From: Ruegeria atlantica
Lineage (GTDB): Bacteria; Pseudomonadota; Alphaproteobacteria; Rhodobacterales; Rhodobacteraceae
Length of the DNA: 40,000 nt
Direction of reading: 5' to 3'
Assembly: GCA_013032095.1 (NCBI GenBank)
Contig: WQBJ01000024.1
Location: forward strand, 1-40,000
The notes under the pieces were generated by a model. That model saw only the letters and a list, made by a program, of their open reading frames with translations. It was not told the DNA's origin and ran no database searches. Below are positions 39 through 21,152 of the stretch, in pieces; position 1 is the first letter of the stretch; each line of letters starts with the position of its first letter. The position numbers and the translations under genes are program-made.

Positions 39-113
39 TGGCTGGGGTGGTAGGATTCGAACCTACGATACACGGTACCAAAAACCGCTGCCTTACCACT
101 TGGCTACACCCCA
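39..113 (-). tRNA. tRNA-Gln (anticodon UUG)
   Basis: The reverse complement folds as a 75-nt cloverleaf. Acceptor stem is UGGGGUG/CACCCCA. Anticodon stem is GCGGU/ACCGU with loop UUUUGGU, giving anticodon UUG. T arm is GTAGG-TTCGAAT-CCTAC. The 3' GCCA is encoded. Confidence 0.9.
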
Positions 114-6875: not shown

Positions 6876-9383
6876 ATGAAAACCCAAGTCAAAGCACTGG
6901 TCGTTGGCGGCGGCGCCGTCGGGACCTCGATTGCCTATCACCTGGCCAAGGCGGGCTGGGACGATGTGATGTTGATCGAACGGGACGAGCTGACGTCCGG
7001 GTCCACCTGGCACGCAGCGGGTCTGTTGCCGCTGTTCAACATGTCCTATGCGACAACTCACATCCACAAGTACTCGGTCGACTTCTACAAGACGCTTGAG
7101 GAAGAGACCGGCCTGAACGCGGGTTTTGCCGTGGTCGGCAACCTGCGGATGGCGCAGACGCAAGAGCGTATGGATGAATACATGCTTTATGCGTCCACTG
7201 CCGAGACTTGTGACGTTGCGTATGAATGGCTGACGCCCGAGCAGATCAAGGAACGCTGGCCGCTGATCGAGACTTCGGACCTGAAGGGTGCGATCTATCA
7301 CACCGAAGACGGCTACATTAACCCGGCCGACGTGACACAGGCGATGGCCAAGGGCGCACGTCAGCGTGGTGTCGAGATCGTCCGCAAGATGCAGGCCGAC
7401 GCCTTCCACTGGAACGGCACCCATTGGGAAGTCACCTGCACCAAGATGGTCGAAAAGGGTGGTAACCTTGTTGAGAGCGACGAGCAGGTGGTGATCACTG
7501 CCGAGCATGTTGTGACCGCATCGGGCAACCACGCGCAGCGCACCGCCAAGATGCTGGGCATCAAGATGCCTGCTATCCCGGTCGAGCACACTTTCATCGT
7601 CATGGACAAAGACCCCGAGCTGGTCAAATGGCGTGAGGCCGGCAACCCTGAACACCCTGTTGTGCGTGACGCCGACAACGAATCCTATGCGCGTGAAGAA
7701 CGTGGCGGCTGGATTCTGGGTATCTACGAACATGGCGCACCCGCGCGGTTCGAACATGGTGTGCCGGACAGCTTCCGTGCCGATCTGTTCCCGTTGGATC
7801 TGGACCGGATTGCAGATCAGTACATGGCAATGGCTGAACGCGTACCGTCCTGCGCTGAATCCGGCCTGAAAGACGATTTCAACGGCCCAATCTGCTATAC
7901 CCCCGATGGCAACCCGCTGGTTGGCCCGGCTCCGGGTCTGCGCAATATGTGGTTGGCCGAAGGTTTCTCGTTTGGGATCACCGCCGCAGGCGGCACCGGC
8001 TACTATCTGGCGCAGATGATGGTCGATGGCGAAGCCGAGATCGACATGGCCTCGCTGGACCCCAAGCGTTACAGCAGCAACTGGATGACCACCGAGTTCG
8101 CGGCCCGCAAGAATGAAGAGTGCTATGAGCACGTCTACATCCTGCACCATCCCGACGAAGAGCGTGCAGCTTGCCGTCCGCTGCGGACTGTTCCGGCGTA
8201 CGATCGCCAGAAGGCGCGTGGCGCGCAGTTCGGCTGGGTCAACGGATGGGAACGTCCGAACTACTTCGGCCCGGTCGATGCGCCCGAAAACTTCGACGAG
8301 GAAAGCCGTTCCTTCCGTCGTGGTAATTGGTGGCAGTACGCAGTCGAAGAAGCAAAAGCGATCCGCGAAGGCGTTGGCCTAATCGACGCGTCGGCCTTCA
8401 CCAAGCATGTCGTCAAAGGCCCCGGTGCGACCCAGTTCCTGGATTGGTTCACTTGCAACAAGCTGCCCAAGGTCGGTCGTATCAACCTGACCTACGCGCT
8501 GACCTCGCACGGCACCACCCGCACCGAATACACCATCGTCCGCAATGGCGAGAACAACTACTACATCGTCTCCGCCGGCGCCTGGACCGAGTACGACGCC
8601 GACTATCTGCGAAAAGCGGCCGAGGACAAGATGGAGGAGTTCGGTTACATCGAGATCCAGGACGTGACCACCCAGTGGGGCGTCTTCGCCATCGCCGGAC
8701 CCAAGTCGCGTGACGTTCTGAAAGAGGTCATCAAAGACGCCGATCCGGAATCCGCGCTGTCCAACAAGCGCTTCCCATGGCTGTCGGCCCGTCAGATCGA
8801 ACTGGGTATGTGTCCGGTCAACGCGATCCGCGTGGCCTATACCGGCGAGCTGGGCTGGGAACTGCACCACCCGATCGAAATGCAGAACTACCTGTTCGAC
8901 CTGCTGGAAAAAGCGGGTGAGAAGCACGGTATGAAGCTGGTCGGTGCCCGCGCTCAGAACTGGCTGCGTCAGGAGAAATCCTATCGCGCCTTCGGCACCG
9001 AGTTGGGCCGCGACGCAACCCCGCTGGAAGCCGACCTGCCGCGCTTTGTCGACCTGTCGAAAGACTTCTACGGCAAGGCCAAGCTGGAAGAGACCGGTGT
9101 GCGCGTGAAATGCTGCACCCTGCTGATCGACGGACCGGACGATGCCGATCCGTGGGGCCGCGAGGCGCTGTACACGCCGGAAGGTGAGCGCGTCGGTCGT
9201 CTGACCTCGGGCGGCTACTCGGTGGCCTTCGAAAAATCCATCGGCATGGGTTACGTGAAGCCCGAGCTGGCGGTCGAAGGCACCAAGCTGCAAGTCAAAA
9301 TTCAGGACAAGCTGTGGGATGCGGTTGTCACCTGCGACAGCCCCTACGATCCGAAGAATGAAGTTATCCGCAAGGACGGCTAA
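6876..9383 (+). CDS. Dimethylglycine/sarcosine dehydrogenase-family enzyme (FAD oxidoreductase fused to GcvT-like aminomethyltransferase domain)
   Basis: N-terminal dinucleotide fold VVGGGAVGTSIAYHLAKAG. C-terminal folate-binding GcvT-like region (YTGELGWELHHP). The 835-aa length is typical of the DMGDH/SARDH family. GGGGAG RBS precedes the ATG. Confidence 0.85.
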   Translation: MKTQVKALVVGGGAVGTSIAYHLAKAGWDDVMLIERDELTSGSTWHAAGLLPLFNMSYATTHIHKYSVDFYKTLEEETGLNAGFAVVGNLRMAQTQERMDEYMLYASTAETCDVAYEWLTPEQIKERWPLIETSDLKGAIYHTEDGYINPADVTQAMAKGARQRGVEIVRKMQADAFHWNGTHWEVTCTKMVEKGGNLVESDEQVVITAEHVVTASGNHAQRTAKMLGIKMPAIPVEHTFIVMDKDPELVKWREAGNPEHPVVRDADNESYAREERGGWILGIYEHGAPARFEHGVPDSFRADLFPLDLDRIADQYMAMAERVPSCAESGLKDDFNGPICYTPDGNPLVGPAPGLRNMWLAEGFSFGITAAGGTGYYLAQMMVDGEAEIDMASLDPKRYSSNWMTTEFAARKNEECYEHVYILHHPDEERAACRPLRTVPAYDRQKARGAQFGWVNGWERPNYFGPVDAPENFDEESRSFRRGNWWQYAVEEAKAIREGVGLIDASAFTKHVVKGPGATQFLDWFTCNKLPKVGRINLTYALTSHGTTRTEYTIVRNGENNYYIVSAGAWTEYDADYLRKAAEDKMEEFGYIEIQDVTTQWGVFAIAGPKSRDVLKEVIKDADPESALSNKRFPWLSARQIELGMCPVNAIRVAYTGELGWELHHPIEMQNYLFDLLEKAGEKHGMKLVGARAQNWLRQEKSYRAFGTELGRDATPLEADLPRFVDLSKDFYGKAKLEETGVRVKCCTLLIDGPDDADPWGREALYTPEGERVGRLTSGGYSVAFEKSIGMGYVKPELAVEGTKLQVKIQDKLWDAVVTCDSPYDPKNEVIRKDG

Positions 9384-9393
9384 TTTGAAAAGG

Positions 9394-9411
9394 CCCCAGC
9401 GAAAGCCGGGG
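9394..9411. repeat. Left copy of target-site duplication (CCCCAGCGAAAGCCGGGG)
   Basis: The identical 18-mer occurs in direct orientation at 20543..20560, immediately outside the two TIRs. The C4/G4 ends are complementary to each other, so the true duplicated length is ambiguous at 14-18 bp. Confidence 0.85.
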
Positions 9412-9516
9412 GGTATAGAGATATCCGCCAGAAAATAACTACTCACCTCAAAGGAGCCCGCACAGAGATGTGTGGGCTTTCTTTCTTGATCCAACCGTTG
9501 ATCGTGATCGACTGCT
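9412..9516. repeat. Left terminal inverted repeat (105 bp)
   Basis: Base-by-base comparison shows 9412..9516 equals the reverse complement of 20438..20542 with no mismatches (GGTATAGAGATATCCGCCAG...GATCGTGATCGACTGCT). Confidence 0.95.
9455..9487 (+). terminator. Inward-facing intrinsic terminator-like hairpin inside the left TIR
   Basis: AGCCCGCACA-GAGA-TGTGTGGGCT forms a 10-bp stem with one G-U pair and a GNRA loop. It is followed by TTCTTTCTT. Confidence 0.6.
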
Positions 9517-9543: not shown

Positions 9544-10182
9544 TCAAATATCTGCAAGGTGGTCAAACTTTCGAATGAACGCTTCCTGCACGCTCTTATC
9601 TTGCGTTAAGAGCAATCCATACGACTTCAGATAGGCATTGATCGCGGTTTGTAGTGCATCTCGCCGAACAATTTTTTTCTTTGCGTCAACGGCAATGTTA
9701 CCTGAAGCCCATATCCTCCAACCATTTTTCGTGCGTGCCTCATGCAACAAAGCACATCGAACACTTTGATAGAATTCTCGCGATTCTAATTTGTCTGAAA
9801 AACATTCGCTGAACGGCTCCTCCCGAACGAGAAACTCACAAAATAGGGCGTTGCTACTTGAGTACTCATACTGGCCGAGTTTCTCGCCCTTTTTCAGGAA
9901 TTTGTAGCTTTTTCCGGCCTTCAGAGCTGCAAGGAACTCGATTAGAGCGCATTGAACAGAGACAATCGTGAATCCTTCACCTTGGACATCGCCATGGTCT
10001 TGGAGCACCTTTATCGGAGTTAGATAACGGTGACTGAGTCGAGCCATCAAAAAATCTTCAAAAGTCTTAGCCCAAAGGATTTCTTTTTCATTTTCATTTG
10101 CGTTTAGCTCGATCTTTCGCGCCTGCCAGTCTTTCACCGTGCGATGCCCGGCAATCTGGTCGCTTGCGTCGTCATTTGCCAT
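9544..10182 (-). CDS. Hypothetical 212-aa casposon cargo protein (possible HEPN-like R-x4-H motif)
   Basis: ATG at 10182 lies 69 bp downstream of the cas1 stop on the same strand, with GGAAG upstream. Sequence looks helical. R142-CALL-H147 is encoded at 9742..9759. No confident family assignment. Confidence 0.6.
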   Translation of the reverse strand: MANDDASDQIAGHRTVKDWQARKIELNANENEKEILWAKTFEDFLMARLSHRYLTPIKVLQDHGDVQGEGFTIVSVQCALIEFLAALKAGKSYKFLKKGEKLGQYEYSSSNALFCEFLVREEPFSECFSDKLESREFYQSVRCALLHEARTKNGWRIWASGNIAVDAKKKIVRRDALQTAINAYLKSYGLLLTQDKSVQEAFIRKFDHLADI

Positions 10183-10251: not shown

Positions 10252-11421
10252 TCAAATCGGCAGGCCAAGCATTGTCGGCTGTGTCCGCATTCCAACCATA
10301 TGCCCGGCATAGGGGCGAGCGGAGTTTCGCAATTCAAACTCCACCTCATACACTACCTTCCTCGCCAAGTTTGGGCTTAGGCGACAAACGCCATCATCCT
10401 GCAAAATGAAATCCGCCCCCGTGAATATTTCGTCCTGGACCAGTTTCAACACAGCCCGGTCTACGATGGGGCGTAGTGGCTCCATCATGTCGAAGACGAA
10501 GGAGTGACGCCTTGGGTCTACACGGTTATGCAGAATCCCTTGTGACACGTCGTAACCATCGGCAATCACGCCGATCCTGACATGGGCTTCAAGCATGCGA
10601 TACGCGTAATTCAGCATCGCATTGACTGGATGAGTGGCATTATAGTTTTTTGGCTTGCCGGAACTTAACGTGGATCTGGAGAAGAAGCGCTTCCATTCGT
10701 GTTGGATTGGGTATCGTCCTTCAGCTCTCCAGTGGATTTTCAATGCTCTCCAGGAAAAGAAGTAGCCAGCTGCGACGCGTCCTTCCTCGGAGAGCAGGCC
10801 CCCGATACTCGACAGCACACCCTTTTGCAGCAATTCGATAACCGATTGAGTTGTATTGATCGCTTTGGTTTTCGAAGGGGAATCTGGTAGCAATTCAAGC
10901 AAGTTATGCAAAGTCGCTTCCGCCTTTGCTGAAATTAGAGGAATAGCGAAATCTAACCTTTTGCTTTCCTCGCTTTGGGTTTCGAATTGCCACATCAGCT
11001 TTTCCGGCAATACCGAGGACTTGCCGTTGCCGAGAGCAATGATAGGTTTTCCATTCCAATTCAATCGGATCAATTCGACGTTCTGCGTTGAAAGCCAATC
11101 CAATGCGTCCAGGGTTATATTGCCTGACCCGTCGATCAGGAAAATGCGCTTTGGTAAACCCAGATCTCCTTTGAAAAAGCGGTATTTGCGTATTTCAGAA
11201 GGGTAATGCGTATTTCCATCCTTTACCGCCAATGTGCCCTTTTCGACCGCAATCGAAATGCCGTGCCCCGACAAGATAAGGGGCGTGGCTTGTCTTTCCC
11301 GCCGCTTCCGCTTCGGGGTGTGTTGACGGATGGATTGAAGCCAATACTCTGATCTTACGGCCCATTCATCGTGGGTTTCTTCTAAATTTTCCAAATCGTA
11401 CATTATTCCAATCCAATTCAA
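10252..11421 (-). CDS. cas1: Cas1-family integrase (casposase)
   Basis: Cas1 hallmarks are present. N-terminal beta region LILSGHGISIAVEKGTLAVKDG and IFLIDGSGNITLDALDWLSTQNVELIRLNWNGKPI. Catalytic E in LSEEGRVAAGYFF (10783..10788). HPVNAMLNYAYRMLE. Catalytic H in GILHNRV (10528..10530). D/E in FDMMEPLRPIVD (10480..10491). An alternative start is the ATG at 11403. Confidence 0.9.
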   Translation of the reverse strand: MNWIGIMYDLENLEETHDEWAVRSEYWLQSIRQHTPKRKRRERQATPLILSGHGISIAVEKGTLAVKDGNTHYPSEIRKYRFFKGDLGLPKRIFLIDGSGNITLDALDWLSTQNVELIRLNWNGKPIIALGNGKSSVLPEKLMWQFETQSEESKRLDFAIPLISAKAEATLHNLLELLPDSPSKTKAINTTQSVIELLQKGVLSSIGGLLSEEGRVAAGYFFSWRALKIHWRAEGRYPIQHEWKRFFSRSTLSSGKPKNYNATHPVNAMLNYAYRMLEAHVRIGVIADGYDVSQGILHNRVDPRRHSFVFDMMEPLRPIVDRAVLKLVQDEIFTGADFILQDDGVCRLSPNLARKVVYEVEFELRNSARPYAGHMVGMRTQPTMLGLPI

Positions 11422-11647
11422 TGTTTTTGTTATTAATCATATCATTAGATTGAAATGACGAGCCTGTTTTCTTCGCCAAATAGGCGATTTTTTCCCGAGT
11501 TCTCCAAGAAATCCCAGATGGTTGACGGCGGCTAGATGGGTGCCAAAGTATCCTAACCCCCTGACTGATTCTTTTTGAGTCAACCCATTGCGAGAGTTTT
11601 GCGGGGGCTTTTCAGGTTCGTGAACATTCTCTTTCCTAAAGGGCGAC

Positions 11648-11669
11648 AGACCGGCCATCGCGCCGGTCT
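11648..11669. promoter_or_regulatory. Perfect 8-6-8 palindrome upstream of the HTH gene (operator candidate)
   Basis: AGACCGGC-CATCGC-GCCGGTCT lies 23 nt upstream of the ATG at 11692, within the divergent cas1 / HTH-HNH-polB intergenic region. Confidence 0.3.
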
Positions 11670-11691
11670 CAAACGTTTTAGGAGAGGCGCG

Positions 11692-12264
11692 ATGGCGAAA
11701 AAGCGCGACTACAAGGCAGAATACCAAAGGCGGATCGCCAATGGCCTGAAACGAGGACTATCCCGTTCCCAGGCACGTGGGCATCCATCCAAGGCGGAAG
11801 CGAGCGCATCCGGCATACAGGTTCCAAAGCCCAATGGTCAGCTTGAAGCTGCATTGCGAGAATTGAGACGCGGTGCCTCCCAGAAGGCTGCCGCGCAATC
11901 AGCCGGTGTCAGCCAAGAGCGTTTTCGCCGTTTTATCTACGGCCACGGCCTAGCCAGGCGAGAGGGACGATCCTGGGTTCTGACCGATGACCGGATGCGC
12001 CGCGTCACCACGATCCACCGGGGCGAAACCAAGACGGTGTGCGTCAATCGCTACGCAGAGGCGCAAACGGCGGGAGAGTATTCAGATGCTGTCGGTGTGT
12101 TTCTTCGTACCAACGATCCGTCCGTTTTGATCCCGTTTGTTGGGGGTGGTCTGACAGACCACAAAGGCCGCTTCCTCGAATTCGAGACGGACCCAAACGC
12201 TCTCTATCGTCACGCGTCCCAGGACACGCCCGCCTTTCACGAAATCTATCAAATCGTCAGCTAA
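11692..12264 (+). CDS. Helix-turn-helix DNA-binding protein (casposon-encoded)
   Basis: Track ORF was trimmed to the ATG at 11692, preceded by TAGGAGAGG. HTH-like segment GASQKAAAQSAGVSQERFRRFI. Basic N-terminus MAKKRDYKAEYQRRIANGLKRGLSRSQARG. Confidence 0.7.
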   Translation: MAKKRDYKAEYQRRIANGLKRGLSRSQARGHPSKAEASASGIQVPKPNGQLEAALRELRRGASQKAAAQSAGVSQERFRRFIYGHGLARREGRSWVLTDDRMRRVTTIHRGETKTVCVNRYAEAQTAGEYSDAVGVFLRTNDPSVLIPFVGGGLTDHKGRFLEFETDPNALYRHASQDTPAFHEIYQIVS

Positions 12265-12276
12265 AGGAGACACCTC

Positions 12277-12654
12277 ATGACAAAGACATACCAAGACCAG
12301 GAAACCCGCCGAGAAAAGGACTACCGCCGACTTCGGACGCGAAATCCAATCTGCGTTGGATGCGGCTATTCTGATCATCCAACTGCGCTGGAACTGGCCC
12401 ACATCATTCCGCGCAAGTTTGATGATGATGCCGTGGTGCTTTGCAGCAACTGCCACCGCGAACAGAGCGACGCCGAAAAGGATTTTTCCTACAGCCCGAC
12501 GACGGACAATCCGCAGATGGAAACCATCGGGCGGTATCTGTTGTCCGTCGCGGATATCCTGAAACTCGTTGCATCCAAATTCGAAGAGTTCGGGCATTGG
12601 CTGCTGGAACAGGCCGAACACGTTCTTCCGTATTGCCCGGAGGAAACGGCATGA
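12277..12654 (+). CDS. HNH endonuclease
   Basis: The pattern CVGCGYSDHPTALELAHIIPRKFDDDAVVLCSNCH matches the HNH/zinc-finger layout C-x2-C...H...N/C-x2-H. AAGGAG RBS is present. The stop overlaps the polB start as ATGA. Confidence 0.8.
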   Translation: MTKTYQDQETRREKDYRRLRTRNPICVGCGYSDHPTALELAHIIPRKFDDDAVVLCSNCHREQSDAEKDFSYSPTTDNPQMETIGRYLLSVADILKLVASKFEEFGHWLLEQAEHVLPYCPEETA

Positions 12655-15401
12655 GCCTACCATCGCCGTCTGAAGTCGCCGTGCGGGCCTACACCGAAAA
12701 ACCAAATGCCCGCCCCCTCGCGGCAAAGTCCTTTGCGGCAGGCGAGGATCACCCGTCACCGTGGACGCTGATCTTTGATTGCGAAACCACCATTGATGCC
12801 GCGCAAACCCTGCGCGTTGGCGTCTACCAAATGCGCAAGTCGGGTTCGTTGAAAGAAGAGGGCCTATTCTTCGATCCCGAACACCTCGGCTGCGAGGATC
12901 GCTCCGCGATTGAGGACTACGCGCAGTCGCACAAATTGAAGGTTCTCTCAGCTGATGCGTTTCGTAGAGAGGTTTTTCTCAAGATCGCCTACCTGAGACG
13001 GGGGGTGGTTGTGGGGTTCAATCTTCCCTTCGACCTGTCACGGATCGCGATCAAACACGGGGCTGCGCGCGGCCCAATGCGGGGCGGGTTCACCTTTCAT
13101 CTCAGCCGCTACAAGAGCGATCCGCAGATCCGCGTCAAGCACCTGAGCGCTCGCGCCGCGCTAATCGACTTTGCACAGCCTGCGAAGCAAGAAACACCGC
13201 GCGGTATGCGTAAGAAAGGGATGAAAGTTCCGCATCATCGCGGGTATTTTGTCGACGTCAAAACTTTGGCGGCGTCTCTGACCAGCCGAAGCTTCTCATT
13301 GGGCGGCCTGTGCAAGTATCTCGGAACGCAATCGCAAAAACTTGCAACCGAAGAGCATGGCGGGCCAATCACAGCCGACTATCTCGACTACGCGCGCGCA
13401 GATGTTCAGGCCACCTGGGAATGTTTTGCCGAACTTGACCGGAGATACAGCGAGCATGGCCTCGATACACCGACCCATCGCATTCTGAGCGAAGCCAGCA
13501 TTGGCAAAGCCTATCTCAAGCAGATGGGGATCCGACCCTTCCTGGGAAATTTGCCAGATTTTCCCCGAGAGATATTTGGCCAGATCACCTGTGCCTACTA
13601 CGGCGGGCGTGCCGAAGTTCGCATTCGGCGAGAGGCAACCCAAGTTCTCTATTGTGATTTCAAGTCCATGTATCCTACCGTCAGCGCCTTGATGGGGCTG
13701 TGGTCGTTTGTGGTCGCGCAAGACCTGAGCATCCATGACACAACGCGGGAAACCCAAGTATTCCTCGACAAGGTATCCTTGCAGGACATGCAGTCGAAAG
13801 AGACCTGGAAGCGTCTGCGCACCCTAGTCCGCATACAAACGAACCATGATCTGTTGCCTGTGCGGGCCAGGTATGACGGCAAGGTCAACACCATCGGCCT
13901 GAACTACGTCTCAAATGAGCAACCGCTCTGGTACACATTGGCCGATTGCATCGCATCAAAACTGTTGTCTGGGAAAACGCCGATCATCGAAGAGGCGATG
14001 ACCTTCGAACCGGGCGAGGTTCAGGACGGTTTCGAACCGATGAACCTGTTTGGAAATCCCAACTATCGCGTCGACCCTTCCTGTGACGACGTGTTCACCC
14101 GCTTCATTGATCTGCGCGATGCGGCACGGGCAAGAAAAGACCCTGTGCAGCAGGCCATCAAGATCGTCGCCAACTCAACGAGCTATGGCATCTTCATCGA
14201 AGTTAACCGGGACAATGCGCCCAAGCCGGAACCTTTGAGTGTGTATGGCCCGAACGGGCATCTGTTGAAAACCGACGCAACCGCTGTCGAAGAACCGGGT
14301 CGCTACTATCACCCGCTCTTGGGAACGCTGATCACCGGAGCCGCCCGCTTGATGCTGGCCTTGTCGGAACGCGTGGCAGCGGATCAATGGTTAAACTGGG
14401 TGTTCTGCGATACCGACAGCCTCGCTATGGCAAAGCCCGCGCATATGGAACAAACCGAGTTCCTGGCAAAGGGGCAAAGCGTGATCGACTGGTTCAATAG
14501 TCTCAACCCTTATCGAAAGCCGGGCTCCATTCTGGAAATGGAAGATGCAAATCATGATCCAAACACAGGACAGTCGGAGCCGCTCTATTGCCTGGCCATC
14601 TCGGCAAAGCGCTATGCGCTCTACAATCTCTCAAACGACGCCAAACCCGTATTGCGCAAAGCATCCGCGCACGGTCTTGGGCATTGGATGGCTCCCTACA
14701 GCGAATATGACGCACCAGGATGTGTGCCAAACCCCGCATTGTTGCCATCTGAGATAGGCGTCGACCGTTGGCAGCATGATTTGTGGATCAAGATAATCGA
14801 AGCCGTTCTACGCGGCACGCCCGATCAGGTCAGCCTGGACTATCATCCCGCCTTGCAAAATCCCTGCGTCAGTCGCTACGGCGCAACCAGCCCTCAACTG
14901 TTGAAGTGGGTTGAGATCTGGAACCAGGATCAGCCGTACCAAGACCAAATCAAGCCGTTTGGGTTTCTGAGCGCGTTCACCGCAAAGTCCGGGTGTTTAA
15001 TCGAACCAAGGCAAGATGTGATCGTGGGGACGCCTGGTCGTGGCAGGCCTACCAAGTCCAAGACGCCAAAGCCAATTGCCCCGTTTGAACGGGATAGCCG
15101 ATTGGCGGTTTCCCAGGCCTTCGACCGGATTGCCGGAGATCAAGTGCACCCTTCAGAACTCAAGACCTATGCCGAGGCCCTGGCACAATTCCATCTCAGC
15201 ACCGAAGACAAATTCGAGAACGGCGATTTTATCCACGTCGGCGAAACTCGAAGACGCCATGTCCAGGTAGAGAATGTCGGGCTTATCGGCAAAGAAGCCA
15301 ACAAGGTTGGATCATGCGGTGAGGCTGATCCCATCGTGTCGGCCCAAGCGAGCTTCGGAGCGCTTCAAACCATCAATCACCAAACGGAGGTCAGCCAATG
15401 A
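12651..15401 (+). CDS. polB: Family-B DNA polymerase
   Basis: Exo I: LIFDCETT (12777..12785). Exo II: GFNLPFDLSRI. Exo III: YLDYARADVQATW. Pol motif A: LYCDFKSMYPTV (D codon at 13656). Motif B: KIVANSTSYGIF. Motif C: VFCDTDSLAM (DTDS at 14410..14421). Track ORF was trimmed to the ATG at 12651 after GGAGGAAAC. Confidence 0.9.
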   Translation: MSLPSPSEVAVRAYTEKPNARPLAAKSFAAGEDHPSPWTLIFDCETTIDAAQTLRVGVYQMRKSGSLKEEGLFFDPEHLGCEDRSAIEDYAQSHKLKVLSADAFRREVFLKIAYLRRGVVVGFNLPFDLSRIAIKHGAARGPMRGGFTFHLSRYKSDPQIRVKHLSARAALIDFAQPAKQETPRGMRKKGMKVPHHRGYFVDVKTLAASLTSRSFSLGGLCKYLGTQSQKLATEEHGGPITADYLDYARADVQATWECFAELDRRYSEHGLDTPTHRILSEASIGKAYLKQMGIRPFLGNLPDFPREIFGQITCAYYGGRAEVRIRREATQVLYCDFKSMYPTVSALMGLWSFVVAQDLSIHDTTRETQVFLDKVSLQDMQSKETWKRLRTLVRIQTNHDLLPVRARYDGKVNTIGLNYVSNEQPLWYTLADCIASKLLSGKTPIIEEAMTFEPGEVQDGFEPMNLFGNPNYRVDPSCDDVFTRFIDLRDAARARKDPVQQAIKIVANSTSYGIFIEVNRDNAPKPEPLSVYGPNGHLLKTDATAVEEPGRYYHPLLGTLITGAARLMLALSERVAADQWLNWVFCDTDSLAMAKPAHMEQTEFLAKGQSVIDWFNSLNPYRKPGSILEMEDANHDPNTGQSEPLYCLAISAKRYALYNLSNDAKPVLRKASAHGLGHWMAPYSEYDAPGCVPNPALLPSEIGVDRWQHDLWIKIIEAVLRGTPDQVSLDYHPALQNPCVSRYGATSPQLLKWVEIWNQDQPYQDQIKPFGFLSAFTAKSGCLIEPRQDVIVGTPGRGRPTKSKTPKPIAPFERDSRLAVSQAFDRIAGDQVHPSELKTYAEALAQFHLSTEDKFENGDFIHVGETRRRHVQVENVGLIGKEANKVGSCGEADPIVSAQASFGALQTINHQTEVSQ

Positions 15402-20437: not shown

Positions 20438-20542
20438 AGCAGTCGATCACGATCAACGGTTGGATCAAGAAAGAAAGCCCACACATCTCTGTGCGGGCTC
20501 CTTTGAGGTGAGTAGTTATTTTCTGGCGGATATCTCTATACC
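20438..20542. repeat. Right terminal inverted repeat (105 bp)
   Basis: Exact reverse complement of 9412..9516. Confidence 0.95.
20467..20499 (-). terminator. Inward-facing intrinsic terminator-like hairpin inside the right TIR
   Basis: Mirror image of 9455..9487, so the same hairpin plus U-rich tract reads on the minus strand. Confidence 0.6.
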
Positions 20543-20560
20543 CCCCAGCGAAAGCCGGGG
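20543..20560. repeat. Right copy of target-site duplication (CCCCAGCGAAAGCCGGGG)
   Basis: Identical to and in the same orientation as 9394..9411. It is followed by CCTTTTTCTTTCC, so this copy still reads as a plus-strand terminator. Confidence 0.85.
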
Positions 20561-20615
20561 CCTTTTTCTTTCCTTCATCAGAAAAATTGCGCCAGACATG
20601 GCTTGTAGAAGTACC

Positions 20616-21152
20616 CTAGTTGTACAGCTTCAGACGGTCGAGCAAGTCTTCCGTGGCATTTACCAACGGGCGACAACTTAGCGAAACCACTTGAGTGAAA
20701 TGCCCGCTGACATAGGTCTGGACATAGTGGCCAGACCACCCGGTGCTGCAGGACCTTTTGATGTTCAACTGGTCGTTACCTTTGTAATTCACCGAATACT
20801 TGCCAAGGGAGAATTCGCTGAATGTTGAGCGGTATTCAGCCTTATGGGTAATCTTGGATATCCCCTTAAAGCTACTTTCGGGAAATGGCTCCTCGATCAG
20901 AACATTCGCTCGGTTCGGTTCCCCTAGGTAGATCGTCAGGCCGCTTGTTGGGTCAAGCGTGTAGTCAACAATCAGGGTAGTTCCAGGCGTATAACCCTTT
21001 GGGACTTCGACCTTTGGCTTCGTCACTTTGTTATCCGTGGGGACAAATCGGTTGGCCAGAACGTCGCAATGAAATCGGCCCCTGATCGGATCTTCTTGGG
21101 CCATCGACTGTTCGGGTAACAAGGTTAACAGTATAGCTAATATGGCTTTCAT
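20616..21152 (-). CDS. Hypothetical secreted protein
   Basis: 178-aa ORF with a signal-peptide-like N-terminus MKAILAILLTLLPEQSMAQE. No recognised domain. It is visibly AT-richer than the neighbouring core genes. Confidence 0.6.
   Translation of the reverse strand: MKAILAILLTLLPEQSMAQEDPIRGRFHCDVLANRFVPTDNKVTKPKVEVPKGYTPGTTLIVDYTLDPTSGLTIYLGEPNRANVLIEEPFPESSFKGISKITHKAEYRSTFSEFSLGKYSVNYKGNDQLNIKRSCSTGWSGHYVQTYVSGHFTQVVSLSCRPLVNATEDLLDRLKLYN

Follow-up and report, generated by a model that had tools for sequence, protein, structure and literature searches.

A 40-kb stretch of Ruegeria atlantica DNA (contig WQBJ01000024.1, positions 1 to 40,000; the window) carries an 11.1-kb casposon, a self-replicating transposon with its own Cas1, whose insertion has split a hairpin between two convergent host genes and duplicated the hairpin's core. 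The explanation favored here, with a probability of roughly 0.75, is that a family-3 casposon integrated recently at the center of a terminator hairpin shared by the two genes, and that this insertion reflects a preference found throughout its clade for GC-rich inverted repeats that can form hairpins. The analysis covered the 40-kb window and drew on its own sequence, profile and structure library searches, RNA folding, and a survey of related genomic and metagenome loci. In a preliminary description of the window, an insertion inside a palindromic terminator hairpin had been proposed, with staggered cuts symmetric about the hairpin axis and duplication of the core. These proposals are confirmed in each part, from the repeat, the 9-bp stem and the GAAA loop to the A and T tracts.

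The element lies between two copies of an exact 18-nt direct repeat, CCCCAGCGAAAGCCGGGG (Table 1). Removal of the element together with one repeat copy gives the site TTTGAAAAGGCCCCAGCGAAAGCCGGGGCCTTTTTCTTT, irrespective of where the boundary is drawn, and the core hairpin of this rebuilt empty site is AAAAGGCCCCAGCGAAAGCCGGGGCCTTTTT. Its stem of 9 bp (GGCCCCAGC/GCCGGGGCC) contains a single A-C mismatch, which is a G-U pair on the opposite strand, and closes a GAAA loop; AAAA is found 5' of the stem and TTTTT 3' of it. As RNA, the reconstructed site folds with -22.3 kcal/mol on the plus strand and -24.3 kcal/mol on the minus strand (z-scores of -4.2 and -4.1, respectively), and none of 200 shuffled sequences is as stable. 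The hairpin starts 5 nt past the TAA of an 835-aa dehydrogenase-type gene (PF01266, 8e-62; PF01571, 6e-69) and the stop codon of a convergent 178-aa gene is 55 nt away. A GC-rich stem-loop with a T-tract on both strands is thus placed just 3' of convergent stop codons, and is kept in orthologous loci. The hairpin is therefore predicted to be a bidirectional intrinsic (Rho-independent) terminator common to the two host genes.

A hairpin between the orthologues of the flanking genes in relatives had been set in advance as a check, and it is found in two loci, L085 and L086. In both, orthologues of the two genes are adjacent, convergent and element-free, and carry a hairpin at the same position. 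The empty site of L086, ggcTAAacagAAAAGGCTCCGGAGAAATCCGGAGCCTTTTTCTTT, matches the reconstruction in its outer stem (AAAAGGC/GCCTTTTTCTTT) and GAAA loop, and departs from it in the inner stem through compensatory changes. That of L085, AGGCCTCGGAGAAGTCCGGGGCCTTTTC, is a hairpin plus a T-tract. As these orthologous empty sites carry the hairpin, it is host DNA, conserved as a structure. Orthologues of the 178-aa protein (P0123 and P0124, 76% and 69% identical) come from two Rhodobacteraceae assemblies.

Exact look-ups of the window's 178-aa protein and casposase matched no contig. The empty-site 22-mer GGCCCCAGCGAAAGCCGGGGCC was found in four metagenome contigs (L081 4763-4784, L082 10976-10997, L083 3779-3800 and L084 380-401), followed by TTTTC in two of them. 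None carries the flanking genes or a casposase, and the four were set aside as unrelated hairpins instead of empty sites. They appear to be independent hairpins of identical sequence.

A palindrome at the ends of a casposon may also be drawn as part of the terminal inverted repeat (TIR) of the element and not as part of its target. HenMar-C1 was presented in this way: its direct repeat is given as 1 nt and its TIRs as starting with CCCCCTCTCCCGGATCGGGAGGGGATAAGGG (Krupovic 2014, Fig. S2), the palindrome CCCCCTCTCCCGGATCGGGAG standing directly before GGGGATAAGGG. A palindromic target-site duplication (TSD) necessarily extends the apparent inverted repeat, to 136 nt in the window. For the window, however, this arrangement is refuted by L085 and L086, where the hairpin is present without the element. 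Further, the repeats are direct down to their asymmetric loops, with GAAA in both copies and not TTTC, and across related elements the conserved TIR terminus is found next to dozens of palindromes that differ from one another. A palindrome belonging to the TIR is thus hardly credible as an explanation. The HenMar-C1 layout itself resembles the target hairpin plus TIR terminus of the 40 related elements described below (compared with L016-L019, L026-L028 and L041).

The length of the duplication is less certain than its position. A six-base G-run (9408-9413) and a six-base C-run (20541-20546) are common to the repeat and the TIRs, so the duplication can be read as 18, 16, 14, 12 or 10 bp. The TIR terminus is conserved as GGGGTATAG across related elements. 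In L058, where the boundary is unambiguous because the TSD has no initial C or final G, a 15-bp TSD abuts GGGGTATAG, and NitAL212-C1 has a 14-bp repeat followed by GGGGTATG (Krupovic 2014, Fig. S2). When three to five G's are assigned to the TIR, all 38 of the 38 elements with a TSD fit 13-15 bp, in agreement with characterized casposases. For a family-1 casposon, a TSD of 22 bp inferred from sequence was measured as 13 bp in vitro, so inferred TSDs may be too long. With a TIR that begins with the G-run, the true TSD in the window is probably the 14-mer CCAGCGAAAGCCGG, of canonical length, and not the full 18 bp of the preliminary description, although the 18-nt repeat is exact as stated there. 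The 14-mer consists of five stem bases, GAAA and five further stem bases; it is centered exactly on the loop, as is the 18-bp version.

The identification of the element as a casposon, also made in the preliminary description, is upheld. The best match of its Cas1 among solved structures is the Methanosarcina mazei casposase 6OPM (9.6e-29), compared with 2.6e-12 for the best CRISPR Cas1, and no CRISPR-subtype model passed in the profile search. No Cas2 family was found among the element's open reading frames (ORFs) in profile library scans, and the 40-kb window has no tandem repeats, hence no CRISPR array. A stand-alone Cas1 is accompanied by a family-B DNA polymerase (PolB), an HNH endonuclease, TIRs identical at 107 of 107 positions and a TSD of about 14-15 bp. 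It sits inside a TIR-bounded transposon without Cas2 or a leader-array, unlike the Cas1 of a CRISPR-Cas adaptation module. The window's enzyme shares 52% identity with the casposase of Hyphomonas sp. CY54-11-8 (L011), the host of the family-3 casposon HypCY54-C1; its named homologues are all alphaproteobacterial, and its best match in the GTDB representative set is 63%. The alignment with 6OPM covers residues 21-315 of 431 and ends before the C-terminal helix-turn-helix (HTH), a domain that the window's casposase lacks. The identity to the HypCY54 casposase, the HNH gene and the missing HTH together suggest that the element belongs to casposon family 3, of which it would be a new member. Its perfect TIRs and exact repeat suggest that it was inserted recently.

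To ask whether relatives also insert at hairpins, a casposase alignment was used to collect 80 genomic loci (of 217 genomic hits), mostly from marine and soil Alphaproteobacteria. Homologues of the casposase number at least 636. A first search for TIRs plus TSD, with inverted repeats found by blastn, gave about 30 elements whose repeats are nearly all GC-rich palindromes. This end finder was dropped as biased, since a palindromic TSD lengthens the apparent inverted repeat. Its replacement, which relies on the conserved terminus GGGGTATAG and on similarity over the 30 nt internal to it and makes no use of the TSD, left the result unchanged. The final set contains 40 elements with exact repeats, including two added loci. 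Viral contigs scanned with the TIR terminus and the casposase alignment gave no match. In addition, contigs encoding P0002 and P0077, considered as possible cases of one casposase at several sites, are the same locus from different samples.

A hairpin of at least 7 Watson-Crick pairs centered on the insertion is found in 31 of the 40 reconstructed sites, so most of the related elements also sit at hairpins, and the second of the checks set in advance did not refute the proposal. Hairpins of at least 8 pairs are found in 29 of the 40, against a background of 0.55% for 16,000 positions from these loci and of 1.4% for positions outside ORFs (binomial p ~8e-45). The hairpin center lies no more than 1 nt from the TSD center in 28 of the 31 hairpin sites, and the two coincide exactly in 16. 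The casposases of the window, L087 and L001 are 63-71% identical and their TIRs are close to identical, yet the three elements occupy three different A-tract/T-tract hairpins, that of L087 between convergent NnrS-family and rplT genes. Held-out loci follow the same pattern, with L105 in aaaatCCCCGCAGCACGCGCTGCGGGGattttt and L104 in CCCCGGATGATTTCCGGGG, both centered hairpins; in L101 the sole visible junction, a hairpin half followed by TTTTT, is consistent with it.

Enrichment of this kind could in principle arise through survival alone, if insertion were random and copies persisted just in harmless intergenic hairpins. All family-3 casposons have been reported as intergenic, and terminators between convergent genes would be a safe landing place. 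However, the excess in 29 of the 40 sites is measured against non-ORF background as well, and selection explains neither centering to within 1 nt nor the re-use of a TSD in tandem arrays. Survivorship alone is therefore very improbable.

The targets fall into several types. Roughly one in four has A and T tracts and resembles a terminator (the window, L001, L003, L005, L006, L011, L013, L014, L051 and L087), and about a third are CCCTCTCCC-N3-5-GGGAGAGGG palindromes (L016, L017, L018, L026, L028, L032, L036, L041, L042, L078 and L091). The flanks of both L042 and L091 contain several similar CCCTCTCCC/GGGAGAGGG hairpins, with none nearby in other hosts, which suggests that in some hosts this type belongs to a family like the repetitive extragenic palindromes (REPs). 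The remaining hairpin sites are GC hairpins without T tracts. Thus, terminators are indeed used, as had been proposed, but the preferred target seems to be GC-rich hairpins in general, REP-like palindromes included, and not bidirectional terminators specifically. Targeting of a tRNA does not apply to the window, where the only tRNA gene (tRNA-Gln, 39-113, minus strand) is 9 kb away from the element.

Whether the hairpin matters as a structure or as a sequence can be approached through pairing within the sites. Watson-Crick complementarity at 3-6 nt from the center is found in 60-75% of sites, compared with 33-41% when partners are shuffled (p <=0.0005 at each position). At 10-14 nt from the center, outside the TSD, complementarity is 45-72% against an expected 27-34%. 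As a genomic correlation, target choice therefore follows base-pairing potential over base identity. B-form DNA offers a protein no means of reading whether variable bases are complementary, so that the formation of a hairpin or cruciform, or the deformability of the repeat, would have to be sensed at some step, and this is the simplest reading of the data.

Several observations weigh against a purely structural signal, or limit how far it can be traced. Base composition is biased: in 25-32 of the 40 sites, the positions 7-9 nt away from the center have C in the 5' half and G in the 3' half, and among perfect hairpins CCC is found at the cut position in 6 of 12 targets but in only 9 of 88 GC-rich background hairpins. 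This preference is real, and part of the target signal is thus sequence and not structure. Nine of the 40 sites are non-hairpin or poor (L004, L009, L035, L039, L058, L071, L074, L077 and one weak case). The G-run ambiguity blocks exact mapping of the cut sites, many surveyed loci are from metagenome-assembled genomes, and 39 of the 80 loci have no usable ends. The two published terminal palindromes of HenMar-C1 are better described as inverted (1 mismatch) than as direct repeats, and that element may differ from those studied here. Finally, a fixed stagger of 14/15 bp fits 30 of the 31 hairpin sites (loops of 3-7 nt), at least as well as a ruler of loop length plus 10, which fits 24 of the 31, and TSD length is not significantly correlated with loop length (Spearman 0.22). 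A fixed stagger is what a duplex ruler would be expected to give, not a measurement of structure; as it fits nearly all sites, the chemistry appears to be that of an ordinary casposase ruler positioned at the dyad.

The composition bias, the CCC enrichment and the fixed stagger are also what would be expected if a symmetric casposase complex simply preferred C-runs and G-runs at its cut sites in B-form DNA, terminators and REPs being the places where paired runs 14-15 bp apart occur. Such degenerate duplex recognition would be in keeping with the characterized family 1 and 2 casposases, which are sequence-specific. However, the C..G boundary motif is carried by 13,833 background sites, of which just 7% show inner complementarity, as opposed to 16 of 26 targets with the motif (62%; Fisher 1e-12). 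The excess pairing at positions 10-14 lies beyond the TSD, and stems vary widely among elements with a near-identical TIR. Duplex recognition on its own is thus unlikely, and hairpin structure and C-run/G-run sequence probably both contribute to target choice. The suggestion of structure- or palindrome-directed targeting made for the window alone can accordingly be extended to the clade as hairpin enrichment, with the qualification that a sequence preference is added to it.

A third possibility is that the casposase has no structural specificity and is led to hairpins by a host process or factor, such as a protein bound to terminators or REPs, pausing of RNA polymerase, or hairpins in single strands at the replication fork. 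Terminators and REP-like repeats are both bound or processed by host factors. Flanking genes, from crude ORF calls at 33 sites, are convergent in 15, co-directional in 13 and divergent in 5. Off-target integration by CRISPR Cas1-Cas2 near a cruciform-forming repeat is reported to have required supercoiled DNA. On the other hand, TSDs lie within 1 nt of the dyad center across diverse hosts, for which direct docking is an easier explanation, and the elements have no accessory targeting protein in common, ORFs without assigned function aside. Indirect targeting is therefore considered improbable, more so than duplex recognition, and we infer that it is the casposase itself, as opposed to a host factor or a degenerate duplex motif, that senses the hairpin or cruciform.

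Under the favored explanation of a preference for GC-rich hairpins, the HTH-less casposase would dock on the dyad of the inverted repeat and attach the casposon's two 3' ends (...CCCC-3'), one to each strand, at points about 7 nt away from it on either side that fall within the C-runs of the 5' arms. Filling of the gaps would then duplicate the loop and about 5 inner bp of each arm, giving a TSD of 14-15 bp. As the TIRs end in a C/G run, a shortened hairpin would be left at each junction, still presenting a C-run and a G-run, and could be targeted again to give tandem arrays.

Tandem casposons that share exactly one TSD copy are found at five loci (Table 1), in line with such re-targeting. The layout of each junction is a right end (CTATACC...), one TSD, and then the next left end (...GGTATAG), and the single shared copy indicates that the duplicated target was used again. 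The second element in L104 has its own Cas1 and PolB. Tandem casposon arrays were previously known for family 2.

For transcription, the insertion would swap the host terminator for a predicted one carried in the TIR. The split hairpin had been described as leaving half-functional outward terminators. Each junction does retain a 7-bp stem followed by a T-run reading out of the element, but these fold weakly (z-scores of -0.4 to -1.7). A further feature, not mentioned in the preliminary description, is carried by each TIR. Within the left TIR, a terminator-like hairpin (GGAGCCCGCACAGAGATGTGTGGGCTTT + CTTTCTTGAT) reads inward at 9453-9490 on the plus strand (hairpin part 9453-9480), and the mirror copy in the right TIR is at 20501-20464 on the minus strand (hairpin part 20501-20474), so that the hairpins lie 42-69 nt from the element ends. 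Inward terminator-like hairpins are found at 11 of 80 element ends, compared with 9 of 800 interior control windows, and are concentrated in the window's subclade (L087, L003, L005 and L006). They are placed to stop read-through from both flanking genes and could substitute for the split terminator; that they terminate transcription is presumed from their form and position.

A stronger version of the explanation can be put forward only tentatively, and is distinctly less probable. Family-3 casposases may be true structure-directed integrases that recognize extrudable GC-rich hairpins and duplicate the hairpin core. The published "palindromic TIRs", which prompted the idea that CRISPR repeats originated from casposon ends, would then be in part duplicated target hairpins. 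If a casposon-type Cas1 inserted again and again into its own duplicated hairpin, as in the tandem arrays, a terminator or REP hairpin could be turned by a concrete path into a palindromic repeat array. The CRISPR adaptation machinery is presumed to descend from casposons. Characterization has so far reached only archaeal casposases of families 1 and 2, both of which read asymmetric, sequence-specific sites; a large bacterial clade that lands on hairpin dyads and duplicates their cores would show a Cas1-family enzyme choosing its targets in another way. It would tie in with the known attraction of CRISPR Cas1-Cas2 to cruciform-forming repeats and offer a natural origin of palindromic repeats. 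Some published casposon boundaries may need revision; a case in point is HenMar-C1, whose 1-nt TSD and palindromic TIR call for re-examination. In practical terms, the small size of these casposases and their lack of an accessory domain would suit them to assays on plasmids that carry designed hairpins, and a GC hairpin interrupted by GGGGTATAG...CTATACCCC is an easy mark by which to find such elements.

Table 1. Positions of the element, the split hairpin and the flanking genes in the window, followed by junctions between tandem casposons in surveyed loci (positions within each locus).
Feature	Position	Strand	Remarks
Host gene, left flank, 835 aa, dimethylglycine/sarcosine-dehydrogenase type	6876..9383	+	DAO + FAO_M + GCV_T + GCV_T_C; TAA 9381-9383
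Left part of split hairpin	9388..9411	.	AAAA, 5' arm GGCCCCAGC, GAAA loop, beginning of 3' arm
Left duplication copy	9394-9411 at most (18 bp)		probably 9396-9409 (14 bp, CCAGCGAAAGCCGG)
Left TIR, starting GGGGTATAGAGATATCC	9410..9516	+	identical to right TIR; GGGGTATAG terminus conserved across family
212-aa ORF, 3' of casposase	9544..10182	-	no family match
Casposase (stand-alone Cas1)	10252..11421	-	PF01867 2.4e-33, TIGR00287 2e-30
Conserved casposon ORF	11575..12264	+	counterpart of 190-192-aa genes beside HNH in L087, L091, L101 and L105
HNH endonuclease, 125 aa	12277..12654	+	phrog_2255 1.8e-9 plus 11 more HNH families
Family-B DNA polymerase (PolB)	12441..15401	+	PF03175 27.0 bits (cut-off 25.8); phrog_1907 5.5e-12
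Zinc-ribbon protein, 113 aa	15398..15739	+	weak zinc-ribbon matches, below cut-offs; 113-aa gene at same place in L087
Cargo protein, 1374 aa	16120..20244	+	N-terminal HigA-like HTH (HTH_3; TIGR02607 3.8e-15) + large domain
Right TIR, ending ...CTCTATACCCC	20438..20544	-	holds mirror inward-reading terminator-like hairpin
Right part of split hairpin	20543..20572	.	duplication copy, then outer stem CC + T-tract TTTTTCTTTC
Right duplication copy	20543-20560 at most		probably 20545-20558
Host gene, right flank, 178 aa, convergent with left flank gene	20616..21152	-	no known family
Tandem junction, L009	3295-3345		
Tandem junction, L015	14088-14140		
Tandem junction, L016	3827-3875		
Tandem junction, L058	14663-14710		
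Tandem junction, L104	12668-12720		

Two of the gene starts in the table are likely to lie further downstream. The casposase probably starts at 11403, as in the database protein P0001 of 383 aa, and the true start of PolB is probably near 12651, directly 3' of the HNH gene, as in its 903-916-aa relatives. The 1374-aa cargo gene is the element's largest, and in its product a region of about 1250 aa matches phrog_18693, a PHROG of unknown function, from end to end (2.2e-147). Several related casposons carry insertion sequences (ISs); in L087 a DDE_3 transposase (11125-12492) directly follows Cas1. L102 (2055-9800) and L103 (6763-14887) are IS-riddled, with several transposases, and have lost recognizable ends; they were uninformative for the survey and look like decaying casposon copies. 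The right ends of L055 and L057 show the same hairpin, CCCCGTGTCAAGCACGGGG, abutting the casposon end GGTATAGTGAT..., in metagenome-assembled genomes that are labeled differently (Chthoniobacteraceae and Sphingomonadales, respectively). It may be that one element at one site is seen twice here, in contigs that are related or mis-binned.

The closest known systems are the other family-3 casposons (HenMar-C1/C2, HypCY54-C1, CitBat-C1 and NitAL212-C1; Krupovic 2014, 2016), which share with the window's element a stand-alone Cas1, PolB, HNH, TIRs, a TSD, an alphaproteobacterial host and an intergenic site; NitAL212-C1 also has the GGGGTAT TIR terminus. In open-access casposon papers the family-3 elements are described as "inserted within intergenic regions", and those of other families as located at the 3' ends of tRNA or aEF-2 genes. 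Here, in contrast, the palindrome is the duplicated target, and the hairpin preference is clade-wide. Targeting of hairpins or terminators by casposons is mentioned neither in the open-access casposon papers nor in the titles and abstracts of casposon papers since 2022, a coverage that does not extend to the 2017 review (PMC5665730) and the 2016 Genome Biology and Evolution supplement. Hairpin-centered target choice is thus a mode of casposon targeting not found described in the literature covered.

Family-2 casposons (Aciduliprofundum boonei and M. mazei; Hickman & Dyda 2015; Beguin 2016, 2019; Hickman 2020, PDB 6OPM) have a homologous casposase, a TSD of 14-15 bp, conserved terminal TIR bases and tandem insertions that share a TSD. 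However, the family-2 enzymes have a C-terminal HTH and use an asymmetric, specific site, a leader-like motif plus TSD at the 3' end of a tRNA gene, and for that of A. boonei a stable palindrome alone is insufficient as a target. The window's clade, in contrast, has no HTH, and its targets are symmetric and vary in sequence.

CRISPR Cas1-Cas2 is similar in that a Cas1-family enzyme makes a staggered attack flanking an often palindromic segment, which is then duplicated. The Escherichia coli complex is reported to integrate off-target beside a cruciform-forming inverted repeat in pUC19. The element differs from this system in having no Cas2, array or leader, in duplicating 14-15 bp and not a repeat of 28-37 bp, and in that the insert is an 11-kb transposon. 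Several of the hairpin targets presumably resemble GC-rich CRISPR repeat cores, such as the type I-E repeat.

Outside the Cas1 family, group IIC introns land at the stem-loops of intrinsic terminators or at other inverted repeats (PMC1702495), and are the clearest precedent for a mobile element with a terminator stem-loop as its landing signal. They are, however, retroelements that reverse-splice just 3' of the hairpin, neither splitting nor duplicating it, by an unrelated chemistry. IS1397, ISKpn1 and some IS110-family elements insert within or beside extragenic palindromes of the REP or bacterial interspersed mosaic element (BIME) type; these ISs have DDE or DEDD transposases, short or no TSDs, and no known link to terminators or Cas1. 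Their likeness to the present elements lies in the target, as the CCCTCTCCC..GGGAGAGGG sites look REP-like.

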